Program-made: the position numbers and the translations under genes
The notes under the pieces: model-generated
What the model was told of the DNA's origin: nothing
Databases searched by the model: none
The model's input: only the letters and a program-made list of their open reading frames with translations
Shown: positions 3,210 through 58,259 of the stretch, piece after piece
How the letters are laid out: the number at the start of each line of letters is the position of its first letter
How positions within the stretch are numbered: position 1 is the stretch's first letter
Source: Acidimicrobiia bacterium
GTDB taxonomy: Bacteria; Actinomycetota; Acidimicrobiia; Spongiisociales; ZC4RG35
Length of the DNA: 64,000 nt
Assembly: GCA_040902845.1 (NCBI GenBank)
Contig: JBBDWM010000034.1
Location: 213,642 to 277,641 of the forward strand
Reading direction: 5' to 3'

Positions 3210-4323
3210 GGTCCAGCGCCCTCAACATCGGGAGCAGCTTGATCCGGGTCTCTTCGAGCTCTGCCTCGGGATCCGACCCATCCACCAGCCCGACACCGGT
3301 GTACAGAGTGACCCGCTGCCCACTGATCTCGCCGCATCTGAGGGCAATGGCGAACTCCCCATCGCCGTGAGCATCCATCCAGCCCACGGGGCCGGCGTAC
3401 CGGCCGCGACCATGGGCTTCGATCTCCCTGATCAGCTCGACCGCGGCTTTGGTGGGCGTCCCGGCTACGGCGGCTGTGGGGTGGAGGGCCGCCACCAGAT
3501 CGGTCACGTAGGTTCCGATGACCGTCTGTCCTTCGAACCCGGTGGCCAGGTGATGGATGTCGGCGAAGGTGTCGACCCGCCTCGGCAGTCGCTCCAGCCT
3601 GGTGCAGAAAGGCATCAGCGCCTCTTGCACCGAATCGGCCGCCAAGGTGTGCTCCACGGCCATCTTTGGTGAGTTGAGCGAAGCCGAGGCCGACGGATCG
3701 GTGCGATCAGCCGACCCGGCAAGGGACACCGACCGGACCGCCGATCCATGTTTGGAGACCAACAGCTCAGGGCTGGATCCGACCAGACCGTCGATCAGAA
3801 ACGTGTGTGATCTCCCCTGACTGTGGACCAACTCCTGCGCCACATGATGAATCGGGACATCGCCGTCGAACGCCATCTCGACGGTACGGGAGAGAACGAC
3901 CTTCTCCACCTCCCCGCGTGCGATCGCCTGCAAAGCAAGGTCGATCGCGGTCCTCCACGAGTCCTCGTCGTCGGCAAATACCCGCCCTGAGGGCATGGCG
4001 AAATGGGGTACAGGTTGGGGGATACGGTCGAGCTCCCCGGTCAACACCCGACTGCCCTGACCGGTGACTTCGAGGACCGTTTCGGGGATGATCACCACCG
4101 ATCCCGGCTCGTCTTCGTCAAAGGTGAAGGTGGCGAAGCCGATGCTGCCCGGGGTCCGGTCCAGGGCTTCTCGGGCCCGCTCGAATCGGTCGCTCCCGGT
4201 GCCCGGGTCGATTCGACAGCTCTCGCCCCAACCGAACAAAGCCATGCCATCGCGGATCCAGGCGACATCCGGTCGGGACCGAAGCGGCTCGGTAACAGCC
4301 TGGTCAGGCTCGTGTTTCTTCAT
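3202..4323 (-). CDS. menF: Isochorismate synthase (chorismate-binding enzyme)
   Basis: C-terminal chorismate-binding signature GRGRYAGPVGWMDAHGDGEFAIALRCG...TLYTGVGLV. Lies next to menC and menD. Confidence 0.85.
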   Translation of the reverse strand: MKKHEPDQAVTEPLRSRPDVAWIRDGMALFGWGESCRIDPGTGSDRFERAREALDRTPGSIGFATFTFDEDEPGSVVIIPETVLEVTGQGSRVLTGELDRIPQPVPHFAMPSGRVFADDEDSWRTAIDLALQAIARGEVEKVVLSRTVEMAFDGDVPIHHVAQELVHSQGRSHTFLIDGLVGSSPELLVSKHGSAVRSVSLAGSADRTDPSASASLNSPKMAVEHTLAADSVQEALMPFCTRLERLPRRVDTFADIHHLATGFEGQTVIGTYVTDLVAALHPTAAVAGTPTKAAVELIREIEAHGRGRYAGPVGWMDAHGDGEFAIALRCGEISGQRVTLYTGVGLVDGSDPEAELEETRIKLLPMLRALDLS

Positions 4324-5093
4324 TCAGGAGACCAGGCTAGGACTGGTCGCGTCGGTTCGATTCCGGCGAGGTCTCGCGCCAGTCTCGCCAGACGTTGTGC
4401 ATTCCCCGTGGTGACCAGGACCAGGGCTCCGTCACCAGGCTCTTCGGTGTGCACCCGCGCCACCTGCAAGGCAACTGCTGGTGCCGGGTCGACAACAGCA
4501 ATGGTGGCCCCGACCAGTTTCTCGATCACCGGGCGCAGAAACGGGAAATGGGTGCAGCCAAGCACCAACACGTCGGCGCCACCCTCGATCAGCGGTGCAA
4601 GACAGTCGGCGACCTGCTGCTCGACCTCTGGACCGTCGACCCTCCCGGCCTCAACGAGGCGAACCCAGGCCGGGCATGCCGCGTTGAGGACCTGGACATC
4701 CGGGGCGTGTCGGGTGACCACCGAGGAGTAGAGCTCGCCCTGGAAGGTGGCCGCCGTGGCCAGCACCCCGATCACCCCGGACCTGGTGGCGAGAGCCGCG
4801 GGTTTGACGGCCGGCTCCATTCCCACGAAGGGGATCGAGGGATGAATCTCACGGAGGCGATTGAGAGCGGCCGCAGACGCGGTGTTGCAGGCCACCACGA
4901 CGGTGGTGGCTCCTTCTCCAAGCAACCAGTTGGTCACTTCCTCGGAGATGGCGGCTACCTCTTCGAGGGAACGGGTTCCGTAGGGGGCGCGGCCTTGGTC
5001 GGCGAGATAGACCAGATCCGCCGCGGGTAGCTCCCGACGGATGTGAGAGAGGACCCCGAGCCCTCCGACACCGGAGTCGAACACACCGATCAT
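4320..5093 (-). CDS. murI: Glutamate racemase
   Basis: IGVFDSGVGGLGVL N-terminus, ACNTASA and GCTHFP catalytic-Cys motifs. Its stop overlaps the menF start (ATGA on the minus strand at 4320-4323). Confidence 0.93.
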   Translation of the reverse strand: MIGVFDSGVGGLGVLSHIRRELPAADLVYLADQGRAPYGTRSLEEVAAISEEVTNWLLGEGATTVVVACNTASAAALNRLREIHPSIPFVGMEPAVKPAALATRSGVIGVLATAATFQGELYSSVVTRHAPDVQVLNAACPAWVRLVEAGRVDGPEVEQQVADCLAPLIEGGADVLVLGCTHFPFLRPVIEKLVGATIAVVDPAPAVALQVARVHTEEPGDGALVLVTTGNAQRLARLARDLAGIEPTRPVLAWSPE

Positions 5094-5193
5094 GCGACCT
5101 ATCTCAGCAGGCCGCAGTCCGGCTCACTGGTAGCGTCGGCCGTCGTCGCTGGAGGGCACCTGTAGGACGTCTCACCACAGACGCAGCGAACCG

Positions 5194-5580
5194 CTAGCTA
5201 TGACGACGCGTTGACTCCTTGTAGTCGTTCAGGTGCCTTCGCGCTCGGCTGATGGCCTTCTGTTCTCGGCGACCGCCCCCGAACCTGCCCTTGTCATAGC
5301 CGCATAGGAGTAGAAGCACCTTGTTGCCGTATGGATGGAAATAGACGCGCAGGGTGATCTCATCGTCTCGGACTCGAAACTCAAACAAGCCCTTTCCCAA
5401 AGGTTTGCCGTACTCGGTTTGGCAGACATCCTTGCCCTGATATTGGAGGACTGCCTTTATCGCGGCCACCAAAGTCGCACGCTTAGCCGGCTCTAAGTCC
5501 TCAATGAACTCACGAGCGGGCTCGCGTCCGCTCGCCGTGGCGTAAAACTCGATCTCAAACGCGAACTCAGGGGTTGACAT
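5194..5580 (-). CDS. RelE/ParE-superfamily toxin, phage Gp49/HigB-like
   Basis: 128 aa. EFIEDLEP...KAV..., GKGLFEFRV...LRVYFHPYGNKVLLLLCGYDKG matches the Gp49-like addiction-module killer pattern. Lies in a low-GC patch. Confidence 0.8.
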   Translation of the reverse strand: MSTPEFAFEIEFYATASGREPAREFIEDLEPAKRATLVAAIKAVLQYQGKDVCQTEYGKPLGKGLFEFRVRDDEITLRVYFHPYGNKVLLLLCGYDKGRFGGGRREQKAISRARRHLNDYKESTRRHS

Positions 5581-5629
5581 AGTTATGTGTTTTGACCCAT
5601 ACTGTAGACATCCGAATAGAGGACTTACA

Positions 5630-5923
5630 GTGGCGCGTCAAGAAGGGTCGTTCAATAGCTTCCTTAAGACCTACGAAGACAACCTGTCTGGAGAAGAGCT
5701 TGAACGCTATGAGGTCAAGCTGGCCCAGTACGAGCTTGCGAATGAGCTGATCGAGCTCCGGAAGGCGGAGAGTTTGACCCAGCAGGCCTTGGCAGATCGC
5801 ACCGGGATCGGACAGCCAGAGATCAGTCGAATCGAAAGCGGCCAAGAGAATCCCACGATGTCCACGATGATTCGGTTGGCTCGTGGGCTTCAGGTCCGGA
5901 TCGGTTTCCGAGACAACGGCTGA
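5630..5923 (+). CDS. XRE-family helix-turn-helix protein, HigA-like antitoxin candidate
   Basis: HTH core LTQQALADRTGIGQPEISRIESGQENPTMSTMIRLARGL. GTG at 5630 is preceded by AGAGGA 6 nt upstream. The track start (ATG 5585) lies only 4 nt from the toxin ATG and is the alternative. Confidence 0.75.
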   Translation: MARQEGSFNSFLKTYEDNLSGEELERYEVKLAQYELANELIELRKAESLTQQALADRTGIGQPEISRIESGQENPTMSTMIRLARGLQVRIGFRDNG

Positions 5924-42500: not shown

Positions 42501-42554
42501 GAGACCGAGCGCCAGGATCTCGGCCTGTTCGTTGCTCGGGGTGAGTGGGCTCAT
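39504..42554 (-). CDS. adnB: UvrD-like helicase fused to RecB-type PD-(D/E)XK nuclease with Fe-S cysteines (AdnB-like)
   Basis: Walker A AGAGTGKTT, DEYQDT, and a C-terminal nuclease with CPKRFYW...D...C.SCDFLRFC. ATG 42554 overlaps the upstream stop. Gene symbol assigned by analogy to mycobacterial AdnAB gene order. Confidence 0.8.
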   Translation of the reverse strand: MSPLTPSNEQAEILALGLDTIRIRAGAGTGKTTTVAMVISNLIAKHSLDPERILGITFTNKAASELADRVRSTIAGKVDEGRQVEIHTYHGFAAQVLSEFGALAGVDNRVKVITPTFSRQILSETFHHTTYQHLDITNRTTLDKIRGLGDRLGDHLLEPGDLLDQGYPDDEIWDSRIEMLQTLQRYSEDKRRLGVVDYGDLVTLSTRILRAHPGLATEIRDRYQVVVLDEYQDTNPGQRVLLTTIFGDGFPVIAVGDEDQTIYEWRGASSENFELFSSHFGGAEAAPAQDRSLTLNRRSAQTILDVANDIRRMANPEAELLESDDPHKKGQVITYWAGDALGEADWIARRFEEIHDDGVPFSEMAVLFRKNKDFAVVVDAMARNGIPVEVANLGGLLSVPEVAELRSWLTVIERPEDSAALVEILFGSRFRLGLADIAPLSRWVAGAEPVRDREEEDPVTLLEAIEEIDRITGIRDDARSALRHFLEVYRTLLTESQGMSLVETCRLVLDRTRAWQDIEALPATTRLTARLNLHRLLDLAEDWSPLTGRPSLEAFLEYLDAMEDEPAEELDSAHLSGEEAVTLVTVHRAKGLEWDVVAIPAVTDLNFPSKARQHPDPGRFAEHLPIQYRIDTALADMPDDEAARGEYLKARNDTQEWRTAYVAATRARSLLMFTGAYWYGLPEPTVRPKKPSPLFELVESNPATQIAGHEVEPERPALLRRAPDGATPDPVFEGGWDGGLRSAISDHEAMSRRATELGVGPEYDQRVTELVETLFDLAATEKIPQSAPDQGAVSVTGLVTYAQCPKRFYWSAIDLLPRRRSPSAVAGTELHRRIELHQRGQVPFEQLSEDLYDVPDELAGDGGFKAFRNSRFSKRPAAMVEAPFEILAGDGYRVRGRIDAIYIDGGHWEIVDFKSGRPSSDPSRIVQLQSYALAATDVDFGHPAPENLDVTFAYLGGELVESTYKADAEWVERARSDITSLTRSIDEKIFTEIPGQWCHSCDFLRFCEPGKAWVGE

Positions 42555-45500
42555 GGCAAGAAGGCTCCCTGACCTTCGGGCCAAGCGGGGCACGACTTCT
42601 TGAACCCGCAGTTCTTGCAGCCGTCACCGACCCGGGGCTCCCAGTTCTCGGAGCGAATGGACTTGGTGACTTGGGCCATCGTGGCTTCGATGTCCGGCAA
42701 ACGATCGAGATCGATAGCGCGGGTGGTGACCCTTTTGGTGTCCACCCTCGGGTACCACATCTCGGCGCCGATCACCTGCTCTCCCGATGATCGAGCGATG
42801 GCCGAGGCATAGAAGGCGAGTTGGATCGAGCTCTTGCCCTCCTCCAGGGAAACGGGGTTCTTGGATGTCTTGTAGTCGACGACCTTGAGTCCGCCGGGTG
42901 TTCGCTCGAGACGATCGACCAGGCCCATCCAGGGGGTGCCGTCGATCACGGATTCCACTTTCATCTCCAGTCCGACCGGCTGGCCTTCGGGGCTGGGCCA
43001 CAACGTGTAGAGCTTGGTGAGCGCCGCCTCGGCCTGTCTCAACCATGCCGCGTTCAACTCAGGAGTGCCGAAATCGGCCTTCTCCTGCCACACCCGGCGT
43101 AGATGATCCAATGCGTCCTCGAGATCGGCATGTGATTTCCCGGCCATGCCGACAACCTGGGCTTCGGCGCCTTCCAGGGCAGAATGAACCAGGGTGCCGA
43201 ACTGGGCATAGGGCGACCCGGCGTCACCCAGTCGAAGCCTCCGTTCCAGGGCGTAACGGCGGGGACAGGTGAGGTAGGAGTCGGCCTGGCTGGGGGAGAG
43301 CCGAAGAGATTCTCCGATAATCGGCTGATCTGGGCCGGGCTCTCTGACTCCGGCGAACGCCGAAGCCTGCCACCAGGTCTCAGGGGGTGAGCCGAGTACC
43401 CGGGCCGCCGCCAGGCGATGAGCCGGGTTCTCTAGAGGGTCGAGCAAGGTTCGACGCATGCTCACCTCCGCCTCGATCACAGTCACTGGCTTCCGCTCGT
43501 CGTCGATAGGACGCCCGAGATCGGAGAGGGAGTCGACACCAGAAGCCGCGACCAGGAAACGTGAAGGGCGGTGCTCACCCTGGTCGACTCCGGCCCCGGT
43601 GGCAGTCCACACCACCCGCAAACGGGCGCGGGTCATGGCGGTGTAAGCCAGTCGCATCTCCTCCTGCACCTGGAACAGATGCTGGGCAGAGGCATCCGTG
43701 GTGCGCTCCGGTGACAACAACTCGGGTCGGAGCATGCGACGACTTCGTCGCATGTCGGGGAACACACCTTCGACTGCATTGGCAATGAACACCACGTCGA
43801 ACTCGAGCCCTTTTGATTGATGAAGGGTTGTCAGCGTGACCCGGTCCACCTGAGGCCGGAAGGCGAGGAGAGGCTCGGATTCAAACCCCTCGTCCTGGGT
43901 CATCTCGAAGAAACGGGCCAGAGTGACCTTCTCGTCACGTTCCGCCTGGCGGGTGAGGACCTGGGCGAAAGCGCTGATGGCGAGACGCCACAACCGCCGC
44001 TCCGGATCGGCAACCATGCGCTCCACGCCCTGCAAGCGGTTCCATGCCTCCCAGAAGCCATCGGTCGCGGGTTTGGCCGCGGCCCACGTCGGGTCGGCGA
44101 TCAACTCGGCGAGGTCGGGTCGATCGGGCAATTCGGTGGCAACGACTTCGGCCCAGGAAGCCCCTGTCCTTCGTCGCTCCCTCAGCATCGCTCGTTCCTG
44201 ACCCAACCCCAACGACACCAGCGGCCCCAGCAGGATGCGGCGCATCGCCCGGTCGGCATCGGCTTTCTCGCCAGGTGTGGGCACCCGGTGATCGCCTTCA
44301 AGCACCGAGACCCGGGCGAGGTCGTCGAAGATCCGAACCGCGGCATGATCTACCAGCCGGGCGTCCGGGGAGTCGTGGGGTATCGAGCGCCGGTCAAGGG
44401 CTCGGCTCAACTCGTTGATCAGCTCGCGTTTGGAGCGGACCAATACCGCCACCGCCGAGGGCCTCACTCCCTCGACCCGGATCACGTGCTCCACTTCCCG
44501 GGCGATCCAATCGGCCTCGGATGTCTCCTGGTCGAACACGTGAGCCTCGACCCGGCCTCGGTGCTCCGCGGGACGTACCGGCCCCGCCGATCCCGGTAGT
44601 TCGCCTGATGAGACCACCCGCAAGGCAGCTTCGAGAATCTCGGGCGGTACCCGCAGGCTCTGATCGAGGACGATGCGGGTTGTGGCCGGATGTCGGTCCG
44701 CAAACTGGGCGATGTTCCTCAATTCGGCACCGCGAAATGAGTAGATCGACTGGTAGGGGTCGCCGGCAACGGTGAGATTGCCGTGACTCTTGGCGAGCAA
44801 TCCTGCCAGCTCGGCCTGGGCGGGTGAAGTGTCCTGATACTCGTCCACGATCACATAGTGAAAGCCGGCAGCCAGCTCCTGGCCCCCGGCGGTGTCGAGC
44901 ATCTCAACTGCCGAGACCAACAGGGTGCCGTAGTCGGTTCTTTCCAGCTTTTCGAGAGTCTCTCGATATCTGCGGAACAAACCTGGGATCCCCCGCCAGT
45001 CGGCGCGCTCCTCGGCGCGTTGCTCGAGATCGACGGGGGAGAGGAGCCGTTCCGAGCACCGGGTCAGGAAGTCGGCGATCTCCGATGCGAAAACTCGGGT
45101 GTCCAGGATCCCCCGATAGGTCACGGGCCAGTGATTCGGGTCCTCTTTCGACAGGAGGTCAGCAACGAGCGTCACTTGTTCGGGTGGGGTCAGGGGGATA
45201 GGGCGATCGCCCCCGTTGCCTACCTCCAACAGCCTGAGCGCCAGGGAATGAAAGGTGGAGGCGTCGACGGGCACCCCCGACCCACCGAGGGCACTCCCCA
45301 CCCGTCGTCTCATGTCGCCCGCGGCGCGACGCGAGAACGTCAAGAGGGAGATCTGATCGCGGCGGGCGCGGCCGGTATTGACGATATGCGCCACACGCTG
45401 GACCAGGAAATCGGTTTTGCCGGTCCCGGGTCCGGCCACGATCAGCTGGGCGCCATCGGGGTCCGCCACCACCGGATCCCAGGCTCCGGGATCGACCCGG

Positions 45501-45574
45501 ATCTCCCTGACTGTCACCTCGCGATGGTAGAGATCAGGCAGCAGAGGGGAGATCGGCTTCCCGGATTTCCACAA
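42551..45574 (-). CDS. adnA: UvrD-like helicase-nuclease subunit (AdnA-like)
   Basis: AGPGTGKT, DEYQDTSPAQ, and a C-terminal nuclease with CPRRYALE ... CKNCGFKKSC. TTG start is preceded by GAGG 6 nt upstream. Confidence 0.8.
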   Translation of the reverse strand: MWKSGKPISPLLPDLYHREVTVREIRVDPGAWDPVVADPDGAQLIVAGPGTGKTDFLVQRVAHIVNTGRARRDQISLLTFSRRAAGDMRRRVGSALGGSGVPVDASTFHSLALRLLEVGNGGDRPIPLTPPEQVTLVADLLSKEDPNHWPVTYRGILDTRVFASEIADFLTRCSERLLSPVDLEQRAEERADWRGIPGLFRRYRETLEKLERTDYGTLLVSAVEMLDTAGGQELAAGFHYVIVDEYQDTSPAQAELAGLLAKSHGNLTVAGDPYQSIYSFRGAELRNIAQFADRHPATTRIVLDQSLRVPPEILEAALRVVSSGELPGSAGPVRPAEHRGRVEAHVFDQETSEADWIAREVEHVIRVEGVRPSAVAVLVRSKRELINELSRALDRRSIPHDSPDARLVDHAAVRIFDDLARVSVLEGDHRVPTPGEKADADRAMRRILLGPLVSLGLGQERAMLRERRRTGASWAEVVATELPDRPDLAELIADPTWAAAKPATDGFWEAWNRLQGVERMVADPERRLWRLAISAFAQVLTRQAERDEKVTLARFFEMTQDEGFESEPLLAFRPQVDRVTLTTLHQSKGLEFDVVFIANAVEGVFPDMRRSRRMLRPELLSPERTTDASAQHLFQVQEEMRLAYTAMTRARLRVVWTATGAGVDQGEHRPSRFLVAASGVDSLSDLGRPIDDERKPVTVIEAEVSMRRTLLDPLENPAHRLAAARVLGSPPETWWQASAFAGVREPGPDQPIIGESLRLSPSQADSYLTCPRRYALERRLRLGDAGSPYAQFGTLVHSALEGAEAQVVGMAGKSHADLEDALDHLRRVWQEKADFGTPELNAAWLRQAEAALTKLYTLWPSPEGQPVGLEMKVESVIDGTPWMGLVDRLERTPGGLKVVDYKTSKNPVSLEEGKSSIQLAFYASAIARSSGEQVIGAEMWYPRVDTKRVTTRAIDLDRLPDIEATMAQVTKSIRSENWEPRVGDGCKNCGFKKSCPAWPEGQGAFLP

Positions 45575-45747: not shown

Positions 45748-47040
45748 ATGGCCAACGCAGTCACACCGGTGCTGAAGCCCATCGGCCACGAATTCGACTC
45801 ACCCATGTACCACGAGGTCGTCGGCATGTTCGACCGGGTGGCCCGCCTCATGGGTCTCGACGACAACGTGGCCGACCGGCTCCGGGTCCCGCAGAAGGCC
45901 ACCGTCGTCAGCTTCCCATTCCGACACGACAACTACTCCGAAGTGGAGACCCTGTTCGGCTATCGGGTGCAGCATCTGACGACCATGGGGCCGACCAAGG
46001 GCGGGATCCGGTTCGCACCCGACGTCGACCTGGGCGAGGTCGCCGCCCTCGCCATGCTGATGACCTGGAAGTGCTCGATCGTGGGGCTGCCCTTCGGAGG
46101 GGCGAAGGGTGGAGTGCGTGTCGATCCGATGCAGCTCTCCCGAGCCGAGCTGCAGCGAGTGACCCGACGGTTCACGATGGAAATCATCAGTGTGATCGGC
46201 CCGGACACCGACATCCCCGCTCCCGATCTCGGGACCAACGAGCAGGTGATGGCATGGATGATGGACACCTACTCCCAGCACGTTGGTCACTCGGTGCCGG
46301 CGGTGGTCACCGGGAAGCCTCCGGCCCTCGGTGGGTCTGTTGCCAGGAGGGAGGCCACGGGTCGGGGAATCATGTTCCTCTTGCCACAGGCGGCGGCATC
46401 TCGAGAGGTCGACACCAAGGACGCAACGGTCGCCATCCATGGCTTTGGCAATGTGGGTCGGTATGCGGCCATCGCCGGTCATCAAATGGGTACCAGGGTT
46501 GTGGCGGTGTCCGATATCTCAGGAGCCGTTTACAACCCCGATGGGCTCGACGTCGAGGCGCTGGCGAAATGGGTGGACGAGAACCGGTTTCTCGAGGGAT
46601 ACCAGGACGCCGACCATATCGGGGCTGACGATGTGTTCTCCCTCCCTGTTGACGTGCTGGTCCCGGCAGCCGTCCAGAACGTGATCCGTGCCGACAATGC
46701 CGACAGCATTCAGGCCAAGATCATCCTCGAAGGGGCCAATGGCCCGACCACCATCGAGGCGGATGACATGCTCCGTGCTCGCGAAGTGCTCATGGTTCCC
46801 GACATCCTCGCCAACGCCGGTGGGGTCACCGTCTCCTACTTCGAGTGGGTCCAGGACGTGCAGAAGTACTTCTGGACGGAGAACGAAATAGTGGCCCGGC
46901 TCCGGGAGATCATGACCCGAGCGTTCAGTGACGTGCACAACATCGCCCAGAGCGAGAATGTTGACCTGCGGACCGCGGCCCTGATCAAGGGGATACGCAA
47001 GGTTGCAGACGCCAAACTGGTGAGAGGTATCTTCCCTTAG
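45748..47040 (+). CDS. gdhA: Glutamate dehydrogenase (Glu/Leu/Phe/Val dehydrogenase family)
   Basis: Catalytic-Lys block GGAKGGV and NAD(P) fold GFGNVG. 430 aa. Confidence 0.93.
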   Translation: MANAVTPVLKPIGHEFDSPMYHEVVGMFDRVARLMGLDDNVADRLRVPQKATVVSFPFRHDNYSEVETLFGYRVQHLTTMGPTKGGIRFAPDVDLGEVAALAMLMTWKCSIVGLPFGGAKGGVRVDPMQLSRAELQRVTRRFTMEIISVIGPDTDIPAPDLGTNEQVMAWMMDTYSQHVGHSVPAVVTGKPPALGGSVARREATGRGIMFLLPQAAASREVDTKDATVAIHGFGNVGRYAAIAGHQMGTRVVAVSDISGAVYNPDGLDVEALAKWVDENRFLEGYQDADHIGADDVFSLPVDVLVPAAVQNVIRADNADSIQAKIILEGANGPTTIEADDMLRAREVLMVPDILANAGGVTVSYFEWVQDVQKYFWTENEIVARLREIMTRAFSDVHNIAQSENVDLRTAALIKGIRKVADAKLVRGIFP

Positions 47041-47822
47041 GCGATCTCGACGAAGGCCGGGCAGATCCCTTTGAACGAGCACCAGTCACACAACCTGCCT
47101 GGTCGGGTCGGGAAGCGACCCGAGGTCATCGCCCTCTCGATCGCATTCCACAACGCTCGCAACTGACCGTCCATCGCGTCGAGTTGGCGGTCGTCGATGC
47201 CGAGGCGGTATTCGGTCGGCCCGTTCAGATAGAGCAGCCTGATCTCCTTCGGCGTCTCCCCGGTTCGCCTTCTGATGAGCAGGGCGTAGATCTTCAGGGC
47301 GAAAAAAGCAGGTAGTGCGTACATCTCCGGGGGAGCCTTTCCGGTTTTGTAGTCGGTGATGACGAGGCGACCGTCCCCGTCACGATCGATCCTGTCGAGG
47401 ATGCCGCGGATCACGATCCCGTCGAGATCCTCCAGCATGTCGAGTTCCCGGTCCACCGGGTCGAAACTGGTTGGGTCCTCGACGCCGAAGTAGTTGGCGA
47501 GCAGCCCCATCGATTCCAGACCCCAGGTCCGCTCGGCTTCGGTGTCCTCGAAGAGACCCTCGAACTCCTCATCGCCCCTCAACTCGGTCCACGCCTCTCG
47601 GAACAGGTTGTAGAGGAGATCGGGCGAGCGTTCGATGGCTGGGTGGTCGAAGAGACGCTGCAGGGCGAGATGGGCTGTGGTCCCTCTGGCTTGAAGAACA
47701 GAGGTGGGCTCGGGGAGACGATCAATGGCCCGGAACTTGAAGAGTTGGGGACAGGTCTTGAAGTCACCCGCCCGACTCGGGGAGAGCGTCGTCAGTTGGC
47801 GATCGGGTGCTTCAACTGTCAT
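47037..47822 (-). CDS. PD-(D/E)XK nuclease, RecB/Cas4-like with 4-Cys Fe-S motif
   Basis: ATG 47822 (MTVEAP...). N-terminal Cys (FKTCPQLFKF), D...DYK nuclease core (ITDYKTGK), C-terminal CDWCSFKGIC. Stop overlaps the gdh stop. Confidence 0.8.
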   Translation of the reverse strand: MTVEAPDRQLTTLSPSRAGDFKTCPQLFKFRAIDRLPEPTSVLQARGTTAHLALQRLFDHPAIERSPDLLYNLFREAWTELRGDEEFEGLFEDTEAERTWGLESMGLLANYFGVEDPTSFDPVDRELDMLEDLDGIVIRGILDRIDRDGDGRLVITDYKTGKAPPEMYALPAFFALKIYALLIRRRTGETPKEIRLLYLNGPTEYRLGIDDRQLDAMDGQLRALWNAIERAMTSGRFPTRPGRLCDWCSFKGICPAFVEIA

Positions 47823-48050
47823 ATAGGCGAGTGTAAGGACCCCCTGTGACAGGAACGCGGAGCCTCTCCGGGCACCGCGAAATCCGGCGGTAGGACGCGA
47901 AAAGAAACCCGCGGTATGGCTTGACGCTCCCTGAGGCAATACCTACTTTCCCGACTACCGAAACGGGGGAAACCTCGTGTCGGGGAAGGAGAGACTTCGG
48001 TTTCTCTGGATCGTCACCAGGCTGGGGGCCCGCTTTCCTGGCAGGGTGGC

Positions 48051-48105
48051 ATCGAGAGCCCCGATAGGGCTGAGGCTTCGGCCGACGCTCCCTCGGGGTT
48101 TCTCG
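48051..48105 (+). repeat. Copy A of a conserved ~55-nt long-hairpin element
   Basis: atcgagagccccgatagggctgaggcttcggccgacgctccctcggggtttctcg. It folds as CGAGAG/UUCUCG + CCCCG/CGGGG + AGGG/CCCU + GGC(UUCG)GCC. Confidence 0.7.
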
Positions 48106-48533
48106 CGTCCGGGAGGTGAGCACTTCGCGAAAAGTGGATCACAGATCGCGAAAATCAATCCGGCCCCGGGTTTGCAGTGGGCATGGCCGTGGTCTACTTT
48201 TCCCGAACGCCACAGGGGAGACCCTGAGGCGCCCCGGACAGTGGGTACGGAGCGGTGAAAGCCGAGCCGGGAAGAATTCCCACGGTGCGGGTGCCCGGAG
48301 CAACGGGAAACCGAATGCTCGGGGTGGTCGGGAGACCGAACGGGGATCTCTAGGGATCGTCGGGCGGCCAGCCGACCGGCGGATCTTCGGATCCGCACCT
48401 CCCTGGAAACGGGGAGAGCGGTCACCGGATCGCAGCGATCTTCGGATCGAGGTCTTCCAGTGATCGCCCGTCGAAGGCTTCGGCCATCGACGACTTCCGA
48501 ACGGAGTTGGGTCCCCGGCCCGACGCCGATCGG

Positions 48534-48589
48534 ATCGAGAGCCCCGAGAGGGTTGAGGCTTCGGCCGATGCTCCCTCGGGGCCTTCTCG
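48534..48589 (+). repeat. Copy B of the conserved long-hairpin element
   Basis: 45 of the first 48 positions are identical to copy A (hand alignment). Same four-segment fold. The bulges differ (AG vs AU; CC vs U) while the pairing is kept. Confidence 0.7.
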
Positions 48590-48594
48590 TTTTT
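48536..48594 (+). terminator. Intrinsic-terminator-like hairpin plus U5 tract inside the gap, about 60 nt upstream of the bPH_2 gene
   Basis: The long GC-rich hairpin (copy B) ends at 48589 and is followed directly by TTTTT (48590-48594). Confidence 0.5.
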
Positions 48595-48654
48595 GGGGTG
48601 ACAAAGACCTTGATCGCGGGCCCTGTTCAGTCACTGACCTGTAGCCTGCCCGGC

Positions 48655-54936: not shown

Positions 54937-55683
54937 TTGGCGTTGCGCGTATTCGCGAACGGGGAGCTGTTCGCTGATGCGACCGGCTCCGGTCCTCCCC
55001 GGGTGATTGCCCTTCATGGATGGGCCCGTCGGGGTAGCGATTTCAGGTCAACTCTTACCGATCTGGACGCCCTGGCCCCGGATTTGCCCGGTTTTGGCGC
55101 TTCTCCACCCCCGTCTGAGCCCTGGGGCGCCGAGGGTTACGCCCGTCTGATCAACGAGCTCCTCGATGTCTGCGACACCCCACCCGTGGTGGTAGGGCAC
55201 TCCTTCGGGGGGAGGATCGCAGTCTGTCTCGCCGCTCTCTATCCCGAGCGGGTCGGTTCTCTGGTCCTCACCGGGGCGCCGTTGATCCGGAACACGCCGT
55301 CCCGGCCCCCGACGTGGCGTTACCGCATGATCCGGGGCCTCAATCGGGTGGGGGTGGTGTCTGACGGTCGGTTGGAAGCGATTCGACGACAGACCGGGTC
55401 GGCCGACTACCGGGCAGCCTCCGGGGTGATGCGGGACATCCTGGTGCGGGTGGTCAACGAGAGCTACGAGTCACAACTCCGGGCGCTGACCGCACCGGTG
55501 AGCCTGATCTGGGGTGCGGCCGACCGCGAGGTACCGGTGAGCATTGCCCGGGCGGTGGCGGAGGTGATCAAGGCGGAGGGTCGGGAGGTCGAACTCGAGA
55601 TCCTCGAGGGGATAGGGCACCACGTCCCGGTTGAGGCGCCCGACGCATTGCGGGGCGCGATCGAGCGGGCACTCGCCCGATGA
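54937..55683 (+). CDS. Alpha/beta-fold hydrolase
   Basis: HGW..., nucleophile elbow GHSFGG, C-terminal GIGHHVP. Stop overlaps the next start (ATGA). Confidence 0.8.
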   Translation: MALRVFANGELFADATGSGPPRVIALHGWARRGSDFRSTLTDLDALAPDLPGFGASPPPSEPWGAEGYARLINELLDVCDTPPVVVGHSFGGRIAVCLAALYPERVGSLVLTGAPLIRNTPSRPPTWRYRMIRGLNRVGVVSDGRLEAIRRQTGSADYRAASGVMRDILVRVVNESYESQLRALTAPVSLIWGAADREVPVSIARAVAEVIKAEGREVELEILEGIGHHVPVEAPDALRGAIERALAR

Positions 55684-57173
55684 CCTGGGCACTGGTCGCT
55701 GCCTGTGTCGTGGCCACCATCCCCGCAGGTCTTCGCTGGTTGCGGGTGGCCCAACGAGAGCACTATCTGGCTCCGTCGGTGACACGGTTCGCCTGGCGCT
55801 GGTGGGGAAGCAGTTGGCTCAACTCCGCTCTGGTTGCTTTGGCCCTTCTGGGTGTCGTCGGGGCGATCTTCGATCCCTGGTATGGGTTTCTGGCCGCCGT
55901 CTCCCAGTTCGGGCCGGTCGGCCTCTCTCTCAGAGGAGTTACATCGCCTCTGGCCTGGACTGGCCGCCTTCGCCGTCTGGCCGTGGTCTCGGGGCTGGTG
56001 GTGATGCTTGTTTTTGTGGTCGGGGGTTTGACGAACGCCGCCTGGTTGGTGGCCCTCGGGGTGGTGGCGATTCCGGTCATAGTGGATCTGGCTTCGACAA
56101 TCCTGGGCCCGGTCGAGTTCCGACTCGGCGACAAATGGGTGACCAAGGCGGCCGGTCGATTGAGCTCCTCGGGGGCCAAAGTCGTTGCGATCACCGGTTC
56201 TTACGGCAAAACGACCACCAAGCAATACACCGCCCACCTACTTTCGGGCGCCTTCCGCACCGTCGCCAGTCCGGCGTCATTCAACAACCGCATGGGGCTG
56301 GCGCGGTCCATCAACGAGCACCTGGCTCCGGGCACCGAGGTGTTCGTGGCCGAAATGGGGACCTATGGGCCGGGGGAGATCGCAGCCCTCTGCGAGTGGG
56401 TCAAACCCGATGTCTCGGCGATCGTCGCCATCGGGCCCGTCCACCTGGAGCGCTTCAAGAGCGAGGAGAGGATCGTGACGGCCAAATCGGAAATCCTCGC
56501 AGGAGCCGCCGTGGGCGTGATCGGCATCGACCACCCCCTTCTCGCCGGGCTTGCCGAGAGCAGGGCCGGTGCGATGAGATTGATCACGGTGTCGACCGAA
56601 CGGCCCGACGCCACGATCCGGATCGCAGACGGCCATCTCCTCCTCGAGGGGCGAGAGTTCGCCCCTGTCCCCGACGGTGCTTTCGGTCTCAACCTCGGGG
56701 TGGCGGTCGGAATCTCACTTGCCCTCGGAATGAGACCCGACCAGATCATCGCGAGGCTCGACAACCTCCCCCGGCCGGAGCATCGTCAGACGGTGACGAC
56801 CTCCGAGAAGGGGTTCTCGGTCATCGATGACACCTACAACGCCAACCCGGCTGGGGCGAGGAATGGGCTGGAGGCATTGGTGGAGCTGGGGGCCGAAGGG
56901 CGCAAGGTCCTGGTCACCCCGGGCATGGTCGAGCTCGGGCCCCGGCAGTCATCGGAAAACCGGGAATTCGCCGCGGCCGCTTCGGGGGTTGTCGACGACA
57001 TCGTGGTGGTGGGCAAGACCAACCGATCTGCGTTGCTCGAAGGCTCTGGCACGGGGCCGGCTTCGGTTACCGTCGTGGCCTCTCGTGAGGCGGCAGTCGG
57101 CTGGGTCCGTGACAACCTCGGTCCCGGTGATGCGGTCCTCTACGAGAATGATCTTCCCGACCACTATCCCTGA
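55680..57173 (+). CDS. Mur-ligase-family protein (MurF-like central and C-terminal domains) with a ~150-aa N-terminal transmembrane region
   Basis: P-loop ITGSYGKTTTK at about residue 171, then MGTYGPGEI..., DDTYNANP. It is preceded by 4-5 hydrophobic helices instead of the usual soluble MurF N-domain. Confidence 0.75.
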   Translation: MTWALVAACVVATIPAGLRWLRVAQREHYLAPSVTRFAWRWWGSSWLNSALVALALLGVVGAIFDPWYGFLAAVSQFGPVGLSLRGVTSPLAWTGRLRRLAVVSGLVVMLVFVVGGLTNAAWLVALGVVAIPVIVDLASTILGPVEFRLGDKWVTKAAGRLSSSGAKVVAITGSYGKTTTKQYTAHLLSGAFRTVASPASFNNRMGLARSINEHLAPGTEVFVAEMGTYGPGEIAALCEWVKPDVSAIVAIGPVHLERFKSEERIVTAKSEILAGAAVGVIGIDHPLLAGLAESRAGAMRLITVSTERPDATIRIADGHLLLEGREFAPVPDGAFGLNLGVAVGISLALGMRPDQIIARLDNLPRPEHRQTVTTSEKGFSVIDDTYNANPAGARNGLEALVELGAEGRKVLVTPGMVELGPRQSSENREFAAAASGVVDDIVVVGKTNRSALLEGSGTGPASVTVVASREAAVGWVRDNLGPGDAVLYENDLPDHYP

Positions 57174-57182
57174 GGAACTGGA

Positions 57183-58259
57183 ATGGCCAAACCGGCAGTG
57201 ATCTTCGGAGGGCCCTCCGACGAGCACGACATCTCGATTCTCACCGGTCTCCAGGTGACCCGGGCTCTGAACGATGTCCACGCGGTCTACTGGTCGAAGA
57301 CCGGCGATTGGCATTTGGTGGACTGCGATCTCGAAGCCTCCGCCTTTGTGGACGGGGTTCCCCGGGGTTCCAGAGAGCTGAGCTTCGTGGCGGCACCAGC
57401 GCAGGGCTTGATCCTCAGGAAGCGGCCGCTCGACGTGAGCGCGGTGTTCATCGCCTGTCACGGTGGGCCCGGTGAGGACGGCACACTGCAAGGGATGCTC
57501 GATGTGGCCGGTCTCAGATACACAGGTACCGGGCAGGCCGCTTCGGCGTTGGGGATGGACAAGCTCGCCTTCGGGGCGGCGATGTCCGCTGCCGGCCTCC
57601 CGACCCTTCCCCGCGCCCTGGTCGCAACCGGTGATGAGAATGCTCCTGCATTCGACGGTCCCTACATCGCCAAACCCCGCTTTGGTGGGTCGTCGATCGG
57701 GATCGAAATCGCCGACGACTGGCCAACTGTTCTCGCCCTAAAGCGAAGCTCTTCCTATTTCGACCAGGGGGCGGTGATCGAGCCGTTTCTCGCCGGCAGT
57801 CGCGATCTCCAGGTCGCGGTGCGCACCTATCCCCAATGGCAGCTTTCTGCGATCGAAGCCCCCTCGCGGGCAGCCGAGGGCATCTATTCGTACGACCAGA
57901 AATACCTGGCATGGGGCGGGGAGGTGAGTGGGGGCCGAGAGCTTCCGGCAAACCTTGAGCCTGCTCTAGAGCAGGAGTTGAGGAGGCTCTCCGCCCGGGT
58001 CACCGAAGTCGCAGGGCTGAGGGGAATCACTCGGATCGATTATCTGGAGCACGACGGTGAGATCCTGGTGAACGAGGTCAACACCATCCCCGGCTCGATG
58101 GGTGCCTATCTGTGGATCGACCCGCCGTTGTCGAGAGAGGTGTTGTTCGCGGACATGGTGGCCGAGGCGGAGGCCGCTCCGGTGCGGGTTTTCTCGGTTG
58201 TGGGCAGCGACGGGACCGCCCTGCGCAGCGCGGGCACTATCGCGTCGAAACTCGGCTAG
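57183..58259 (+). CDS. ddl: D-alanine--D-alanine ligase family (ATP-grasp)
   Basis: FGG.S.EH.IS, HGGPGEDGTLQG, MDK, and EVNTIPG motifs. Confidence 0.88.
   Translation: MAKPAVIFGGPSDEHDISILTGLQVTRALNDVHAVYWSKTGDWHLVDCDLEASAFVDGVPRGSRELSFVAAPAQGLILRKRPLDVSAVFIACHGGPGEDGTLQGMLDVAGLRYTGTGQAASALGMDKLAFGAAMSAAGLPTLPRALVATGDENAPAFDGPYIAKPRFGGSSIGIEIADDWPTVLALKRSSSYFDQGAVIEPFLAGSRDLQVAVRTYPQWQLSAIEAPSRAAEGIYSYDQKYLAWGGEVSGGRELPANLEPALEQELRRLSARVTEVAGLRGITRIDYLEHDGEILVNEVNTIPGSMGAYLWIDPPLSREVLFADMVAEAEAAPVRVFSVVGSDGTALRSAGTIASKLG

Follow-up and report, generated by a model that had tools for sequence, protein, structure and literature searches.

A candidate multi-copy family of structured small RNAs in Acidimicrobiia, seen in two adjacent modules of one gene-free gap

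Small RNAs (sRNAs) in bacteria do not always come singly; paralogous copies may stand in tandem and answer to one regulator, as OmrA/OmrB do to OmpR, PrrF1/PrrF2 to Fur, Qrr1-5 to LuxO and the streptococcal csRNAs to CiaR. Here we ask what is encoded in a gap of ~830 base pairs (bp), at 47823-48654 of a 64,000-nucleotide (nt) stretch of DNA from an Acidimicrobiia bacterium (contig JBBDWM010000034.1; the whole stretch is "the window" below), which is flanked by genes for a PD-(D/E)XK nuclease and a bPH_2-SHOCT protein and has no protein gene of its own. A first-pass annotation had given one answer: a single large RNA, rich in UUCG tetraloops and belonging to no family that could be named. Our own answer is that the gap very probably holds two adjacent, independently transcribed sRNA genes of a new family, which we call A and B.

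The organization of these genes appears, by analogy, most like that of the tandem and multi-copy sets just named, although they are members of none. As in those sets, the genes are paralogous, each has its own copy of a putative regulatory site, the predicted 3' terminator is shared, and the interior is particular to each paralogue; there is even a likeness to PrrH, in that read-through of the first terminator is possible. The differences are just as plain. There is no kinship in sequence or in Rfam, the family is far more structured (and B, with 390 nt and 14 helices, is much longer), the host is one of the Acidimicrobiia, and the promoter boxes are spaced by 20-21 nt rather than by the 10-11 nt typical of response-regulator repeats. 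What the genes share with trans-encoded sRNAs in general is that they are stand-alone and non-coding, each with a predicted promoter and terminator of its own.

Might they belong to something already described in the actinobacteria? In 6C RNA (RF01066) and other Hfq-independent actinobacterial sRNAs, C-rich apical loops serve as seeds, and the loop UCCCCGG of helix P13 in B is likewise an apical loop rich in C and carried by a stem that covaries; it is, however, the one such loop, with four consecutive C, while the loop of A is G-rich and then runs CUUUCC, and the architectures are unrelated. 6S and Ms1 are closer in general character: they too stand alone, are highly structured, measure 150-400 nt, have a promoter and a terminator to themselves and are (like ours, probably) abundant, and Ms1 shares the actinobacterial phylum. 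But those RNAs fold into one long helix, irregular and opened by a central bubble, whereas this family is a chain of independent hairpins. We rejected 6S on these grounds—serial hairpins, no terminal closing stem, 5' and 3' ends unpaired and no match to the Rfam 6S models. Ms1 occurs in many Actinobacteria, flanked by a HAD-IB hydrolase or phosphoserine phosphatase gene and an oxidoreductase gene, according to PMC9130861, in which a full-text search found no mention of Acidimicrobiia; Ms1 was rejected for its different fold and, as far as the synteny described there goes, for flanks that differ from the nuclease and bPH_2-SHOCT genes conserved here in 80 loci.

The raiA motif RNA, a large structured non-coding RNA (ncRNA), does occur in Acidimicrobiia (PMC10861870), and the likeness is that of a structured ncRNA from the same class whose biochemical function is likewise unknown. 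We set it aside for want of an Rfam match in the window or the related loci (the raiA model being presumed included) and of a raiA/comFC gene context. Rfam 15, searched with the whole 64-kb window, returned 0 matches at the gathering score, in keeping with the first-pass failure to find a family; within the gap at E<=10, the hits were of chance level (the best an unrelated microRNA at 21.8 bits against a threshold of 100), and 16 related loci gave transfer RNAs only. It is because of this lack of Rfam matches that we take the family to be neither raiA nor 6C. A CsrB/RsmZ-type sponge was rejected as well, the loops alternating among UUCG, GAAA, GAGA and GCAA at the same positions with no conserved GGA loops, and a literature search found no paper describing small RNAs of Acidimicrobiia.

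Two modules rather than one RNA

The gap itself is real, as had been claimed, and its reading frames are not genes. A single tblastn high-scoring segment pair spans at least 80% of a gap open reading frame (ORF) in just 1-12 of 25-64 loci, with a median coverage of 0.30-0.64 in relatives, whereas the same coverage is reached by the bPH_2 control in 52/55 loci and by the nuclease control in 80/80; a protein-coding gap was rejected on that comparison.

Relatives of the nuclease gene define 80 loci, essentially all of them in metagenome-assembled genomes of Acidimicrobiia, and across these loci, blastn and nhmmer split the gap into module A (window 47954-48109) and module B (48202-48596). Each occurs once per locus by nhmmer, A in ~75/80 loci and B in ~70/80. 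They are also related to each other: B is homologous to A over its final ~120 nt, and the 3' 168 nt of B (48438-48605) score 84.5 bits against the covariance model of A. In many loci, the two lie 0.7-2 kb apart with protein genes inserted between them (in locus L014, a 206-aa ORF that looks membrane-protein-like by eye and a 444-aa ORF that looks hydrolase- or cyclase-like), and in L024, A stands in the opposite orientation to B. In other words, the first-pass candidate survives as a tetraloop-rich, plus-sense structured RNA outside the known families, but not as one RNA of ~830 nt: there are two modules with predicted promoters and terminators of their own that can be separated, inverted and separately amplified, and another paralogue occurs elsewhere, at a locus unrelated to this one. 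As judged from their sequences, A and B are paralogues in an undescribed multi-copy RNA family, found so far in Acidimicrobiia only.

The structural case comes from covariation, which the first-pass annotation had proposed to seek in homologous gaps and which proved to be strong and compensatory. For A, a model of four hairpins over 61 sequences has 93.9% standard pairs, with compensatory changes at 28/48 pairs; none of 500 shuffles did as well, and controls in which the model was slid along the alignment reached at most 62.8%. For B, the RNAalifold model over 44 sequences has 115 pairs in 14 helices, 92.0% paired and 51/115 compensatory, against 0/500 shuffles and slid controls of at most 51.9%. 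In 100 further loci, the covariance model of A picks out 161 units. Family-wide, with 146 distinct sequences, pairing holds in 92.2% of cells (against 72.6% after shuffling), and compensatory change is seen at 40/48 pairs in an alignment that, having been fitted to the covariance model, favors the structure.

The hexamer CTTCGG, which first drew attention to the gap, occurs six times on the plus strand (47995, 48076, 48385, 48440, 48478 and 48559), far above chance as had been estimated: with 57 copies on the plus strand of the window (0.89/kb), 0.51 would be expected in 575 nt, and the Poisson P for at least six is 1.6e-5. Corrected for all windows and both strands, P is ~0.004, and no other 575-nt stretch has six. 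(There is a weaker plus-strand cluster at 56980-57574, five in ~600 nt; it lies inside the long ORFs 55680-57173 and 57183-58259, which have a high GC content at third codon positions (GC3), and is therefore most likely part of the coding sequence rather than a sign of structured RNA.) All six hexamers cap helices just where the first-pass annotation had drawn them, and those helices are supported by covariation. Its call of the plus strand was right too, on three counts that agree: the fold energy is -359.9 kcal/mol (z -6.0) on the plus strand against -294.8 (z -2.8) on the minus, the covariance model of A scores 163.5 and 84.5 bits in the window on the plus strand and only 17.9 and 14 bits on the minus, and several G-U pairs are invariant over 44-146 sequences, which identifies the RNA strand. 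The recurring strings GAA(A)CGGGG are indeed there; they turn out to be pieces of GNRA loop plus stem from four different helices, and only those at 48338 and 48499 fall in invariant sequence.

Most loops swap freely among UUCG, GAAA, GAGA and GCAA at a given position, but two do not vary: the H3 loop of A (GGGCCCGCUUUC), invariant in 56/61 sequences, and the P13 loop of B (UCCCCGG), invariant in 44/44. We note beside these a few resemblances. The ten invariant bases GGGGGCCCGC at the H3 loop of A (window 48021-48030) match what we take to be the universally conserved 16S ribosomal RNA (rRNA) segment at ~926-935 (E. coli; GACGGGGGCCCGCACAAG); the likeness ends with those ten bases and may be chance. 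At 48616-48623, ~35 nt upstream of the first bPH_2 start, stands GCGGGCCC, perfectly complementary to the core of the invariant A loop, a match that may also be chance, since that core is a palindrome and the site was seen only in a few close relatives, those that have the first bPH_2 gene. Finally, a search for pseudoknots, by way of covarying stacks that are not nested, was overwhelmed by chance stacks rich in G/U and left one candidate, a 9-bp long-range helix in B between CGGGGAUCU (48341-48349, 5' arm of P8) and GGGUCCCCG (48509-48517, apex of P13), which would compete with P8 and P13 and is invariant on both of its strands.

Table 1. Predicted features of the gap (window coordinates)
Feature	Positions	Strand	Details	Basis
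Remainder beside the nuclease start codon	47823..47875		Upstream of the A promoter boxes; conserved among close relatives only	
A upstream promoter boxes	47876..47903	+	CGCGAAAT at 47876, CGCGAAAA at 47896, 20 nt apart	Sequence reading
A core promoter	47921..47949	+	-35 TTGACG 47921-47926, 17-nt spacer, -10 TACTTT 47944-47949	Sequence reading; kept in A homologues
RNA A, short form	47956..48110	+	~155 nt	Ends inferred from promoter and hairpin
A H1	47958-47983	+	GAAA loop	Covariation
A H2	47988-48007	+	UUCG loop; CUUCGG cap	Covariation
A H3	48013-48050	+	Invariant loop GGGCCCGCUUUC at 48026-48037	Covariation
A H4, terminal hairpin	48053-48105	+	CUUCGG-capped apex 48074-48083	Covariation
A H4 plus tail	48053..48110	+	CGAGAGCCCCGAUAGGGCU..GGC-UUCG-GCC..CGCUCCCUCGGGGUUUCUCG, then CGUCC	Direct repeat; core invariant in the family
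B upstream promoter boxes	48126..48154	+	CGCGAAAA at 48126 and 48147, 21 nt apart	Sequence reading; direct repeat
B core promoter	48172..48200	+	-35 TTGCAG 48172-48177, 17-nt spacer, -10 TACTTT 48195-48200	Sequence reading
RNA B, long form	48207..48596	+	~390 nt, 14 helices	nhmmer, alignment, RNAalifold
B P1	48208-48231	+	GAGA loop	Covariation model
B P4	48248-48269	+	GAAA loop	Covariation model
B P6	48297-48320	+	GAAA loop	Covariation model
B P8	48336-48367	+	Invariant GGGGAUC..GGAUCGUCG	Covariation model
B P9	48379-48396	+	UUCG loop; CUUCGG cap	Covariation model
B P10	48399-48416	+	GAAA loop	Covariation model
B P11	48435-48450	+	UUCG loop; CUUCGG cap	Covariation model
B P12	48470-48491	+	UUCG loop; CUUCGG cap	Covariation model
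B P13	48496-48534	+	Invariant loop UCCCCGG	Covariation model
B P14	48536-48589	+	CUUCGG-capped apex 48557-48566; then TTTTT 48590-48594	Covariation model

Promoter boxes, terminal hairpins and copy number

Upstream of each unit is a stereotyped arrangement that we read as a promoter. Two CGCGAAA boxes stand 20/21 nt apart in 240/244 non-redundant units, and from the start of the second box to a TTGACG-like -35 element is exactly 25 nt in 228/236, as it is for B in the window; the -35/-10 spacer is 17-18 nt, and the -10 element is TACNTT. (A generic sigma-70 scan missed the promoter of A because its -10 reads TACTTT.) The double boxes keep close company with the family: of 307 in 1.48 Mb of Acidimicrobiia loci, 271 have the family hairpin within 800 nt on their 3' side, and most of the others are followed by similar hairpin-rich sequence, whereas control loci of other phyla have 11 in 0.92 Mb. 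From the promoter geometry and the predicted start, we estimate the boxes to be centered at roughly -57 and -77, which would put them where class I activators or UP-like elements act. A literature search with the box sequence turned up primers and unrelated text only, and no known regulator motif matched. That the whole gap is RNA, as the first-pass annotation had it, is not supported: its first ~130 nt (47823-47955) are promoter DNA, and 47823-47875 are presumably the 5' leader and promoter of the nuclease gene, outside the RNAs.

At the other end, the terminal hairpins of A and B form a 48-nt direct repeat of 94% identity (B copy 48534-48581), whose core, CCCGAG/CUCGGG with one G-U pair, is invariant in 145-146/146 family members. 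The shared hairpin looks like an intrinsic terminator in sequence; five T follow it in B, whereas in A it is followed by the conserved CGCGUCC and there is no T-run, so that read-through from A into B is possible. We found 312 such hairpins in 199 loci, 264 of them (85%) with the promoter upstream. The distance from -10 to hairpin end falls into a sharp class of 140-160 nt (123 units) and a broad one of 220-480 nt, so the family has a short and a long form. Past the hairpin, there is a conserved tail (UUUCUCGCGUC or UUUUUCGCGUC; window 48099-48110; GGGGTTTTTCGCGTC in L216) that is the promoter box inverted (GACGCGAAAA), so that CGCG/A-tract elements in inverted orientation frame each unit; at 48105, 48126 and 48147 of the window, CGCG cores recur with a phase of 21 nt.

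The window has two units in its 64 kb, and other loci have 1-6. They are kept in the same chromosomal neighborhood, but there they have been shifted, turned round and multiplied without the flanking genes. Arrays of three to six units with unequal numbers of A-type and B-type are found in L214 (five, at 4025-5804), L215 (three), L276 (1784-8000, six together with L201) and L287 (six), the arrays of short and long units lying next to the nuclease gene and every unit having two boxes of its own. Relatives of the nuclease, orf86 and orf119 are present around the arrays, and no bPH_2 or synthetase gene was seen in the available stretch of L214, L215 or L276, which speaks against the first-pass tie between the RNA and the bPH_2 and acyl-CoA synthetase genes. 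It follows from these tandem arrays that the copy number is evolutionarily labile; the units are inherited vertically, in varying number.

A third locus, on another contig in several genomes, carries a short "C-type" unit of ~150 nt with the same boxes and hairpin (L216 6413-6587, L229 6959-7133, L262 6532-6694; also L219, L224, L240, L242, L261 and L278), and L262 shares its assembly with L002, which is closely related to the window. The C-type unit lies between a small divergent gene and a convergent gene of TetR type (by eye), and its H3 is UUCG-capped, without the invariant loop. Its promoter box, TCGCGAAGAA, resembles what is presumably 16S rRNA at 976-985; this too may be chance.

How far does the family reach? 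An exact-pattern scan with the hairpin signature, one genome per species, gave only Acidimicrobiia/Actinomycetota among the at least 120 matches listed, bar four without a phylum and several labeled Acidobacteriota, while a scan of genomes with the 14-mer GGGGCCCGCTTTCC was unspecific and returned unrelated phyla. Loci L003, L004, L007, L008 and L014-L016, along with other MFD-named assemblies, are titled 'uncultured Acidobacteriota'; the labels look wrong because the nuclease in them is 82-95% identical to that of the window and the synteny is as in Acidimicrobiia, and some loci with this label have a nuclease 88-95% identical to those of Acidimicrobiia. The MFD names mark a single soil/sediment series, to which many of the related assemblies belong, and no cultured host turned up in ~200 loci. 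No family copy was matched in phage records, plasmids or viral contigs, and an origin in any of these was rejected.

Modes of action and alternative readings

If the units are genes, then what would their RNAs do? We suggest that one sequence-specific activator, acting on the two boxes, would switch on the whole family together; that the working surfaces of the RNAs would be the invariant loops particular to each paralogue (for A the H3 loop GGGGGCCCGCUUUCC, for B the P13 loop UCCCCGG), which would base-pair with target messenger RNAs (mRNAs) at sites rich in G or resembling a Shine-Dalgarno sequence, much as in Hfq-independent actinobacterial sRNAs; and that the shared 3' hairpin would end transcription, stabilize the RNA and perhaps bind a common protein. 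To this explanation as a whole—two independent trans-acting sRNA genes of a new family, one activator, action through apical loops—we would give a probability of roughly 0.6. Its parts differ. That the RNAs act in trans is probable on the sequence evidence; that they do so by base pairing through the invariant loops is a tentative suggestion, which we hold with less than even confidence.

Several points weigh against this explanation, and we have not ignored them. The start and end points of the RNAs are predictions, and the activator is hypothetical (the boxes could be UP-like elements made of phased A-tracts). Neither invariant loop has an enriched complement in the window, and in RNAduplex, the loops pair no better than background with the start regions of the genes for helicase, glutamate dehydrogenase, nuclease, bPH_2 and acyl-CoA synthetase, except for an 8-9-bp GCGGGCCC site in seven close relatives with the first bPH_2 gene, which is not conserved more widely. 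The 5' domain of B is large and partly invariant, more elaborate than a base-pairing sRNA needs. And the UUCG-capped H3 of the C-type offers no obvious seed loop, so that what the family does may depend on the 3' hairpin common to its members, and hence on a protein partner, rather than on seeds.

That last thought leads to the main rival, in which the family would consist of abundant, stable RNAs whose invariant hairpin and loops bind or sequester a protein instead of pairing with mRNAs; it could be RNA polymerase, as for 6S and Ms1, a factor of the ribosome or of assembly, or a regulator that binds RNA. The hairpin core is the sole element invariant in all paralogues, and with its fixed G-U pair and an A opposite C/U, it is under more constraint than a terminator needs; the body of B is large and ornate, the promoter is strong, stereotyped and like that of a stable RNA, and neither the window nor the start regions of the neighbors supplied an mRNA complement. 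We nonetheless consider it somewhat unlikely, since most loops swap UUCG for GNRA and so offer no repeated protein sites of the CsrB kind, the 6S rod with its bubble is absent and the 5' and 3' ends are unpaired, the Ms1 neighborhood (as given in PMC9130861) is a different one, and no candidate partner was identified. A bolder version, in which the family, and above all B with its ~390 nt and 14 helices, is a new class of large ncRNA specific to Acidimicrobiia, a ribonucleoprotein scaffold or protein decoy and not an antisense regulator, with the invariant 3' hairpin and loops as sites of protein recognition and an activator in control of the multi-copy set, strikes us as doubtful. That A might mimic rRNA for a ribosome-associated factor by way of GGGGGCCCGC, with its presumed 16S identity, is speculation.

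The remaining readings fare worse. One large RNA of ~750-830 nt, with A and B as domains joined by read-through of the A hairpin, would suit the missing T-run, the adjacency and common orientation of A and B in the window and its closest relatives, and a minimum-free-energy fold of the whole region that can pair both repeat copies; it is very improbable given the complete promoter of B, the protein genes that split A from B in many loci, the inversion in L024, the unequal arrays and the lack of A-to-B covariation. Nor, in all likelihood, is B a riboswitch or attenuator leader of the bPH_2-SHOCT and acyl-CoA synthetase genes, an idea that draws on its co-orientation with the first bPH_2 gene, 58 nt downstream of its end, and on a hairpin followed by T5. 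The terminator helix is a constitutive 21-bp stem with no competing antiterminator that has covariation support (the one alternative pairing is the invariant 9-bp candidate of 48341-48349 with 48509-48517), the downstream neighbor varies (bPH_2, the 444-aa ORF in L014, another RNA unit in arrays, by eye a convergent TetR-like gene), and units of A-type and C-type share the hairpin without sharing any downstream gene, so we hold this even less probable than the single RNA. We give least credence of all to DNA-level repeats that merely happen to fold, whether like repetitive extragenic palindromes or miniature inverted-repeat transposable elements, recombination sites or decayed duplications. 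Units do amplify in tandem, and inverted repeats do bracket them (the C-type 3' tail UUUUUCGCGUC is the inverted promoter box GACGCGAAAAA). Yet there are only 1-6 units per locus, syntenic across the class and diverging in step with host genes; their G-U structure is strand-specific, compensatory changes keep the helices, promoter elements lie at fixed distances, 85% of the hairpins have a dedicated promoter, and phages, plasmids and viral contigs have no copies.

Neighboring genes and wider meaning

The nuclease gene (47040-47822, minus strand) is PD-(D/E)XK by Pfam, and on the 3' side of the gap come a bPH_2+SHOCT gene from 48655, a second from 49296 and then an AMP-binding enzyme (also by Pfam). 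The order helicase-nuclease, glutamate dehydrogenase, nuclease, gap, bPH_2 and acyl-CoA synthetase is conserved; the distance from nuclease to bPH_2 varies from 0.8 to ~3 kb among loci, and the number of bPH_2-SHOCT genes is one or two. The stand-alone nuclease is ~26% identical to the C-terminal PD-(D/E)XK/Cas4-like domain of the 1007-aa UvrD-type helicase-nuclease at 42551-45574. Spacers elsewhere in the window are short, as had been remarked, with medians of 17-115 nt and long open frames across the other apparent gaps; this is a rough statement and no more, the crude GC3 gene caller behind it having placed starts wrongly and passed over some genes.

Acidimicrobiia, most of them uncultured, abound in soil, freshwater, marine and wastewater communities. 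What this gap adds to them, as we read it, is a new family within a known general kind of RNA, and one whose anatomy is unusually clean: the promoter follows a fixed grammar, the helices covary, certain loops are invariant and the number of copies varies. The alignments are fit to seed new Rfam families and would improve the annotation of hundreds of metagenome-assembled genomes. Beyond that, the locus makes three questions testable, namely which factor reads the promoter, which signal switches the whole set of RNAs and what role an ornate 390-nt RNA plays in this lineage.

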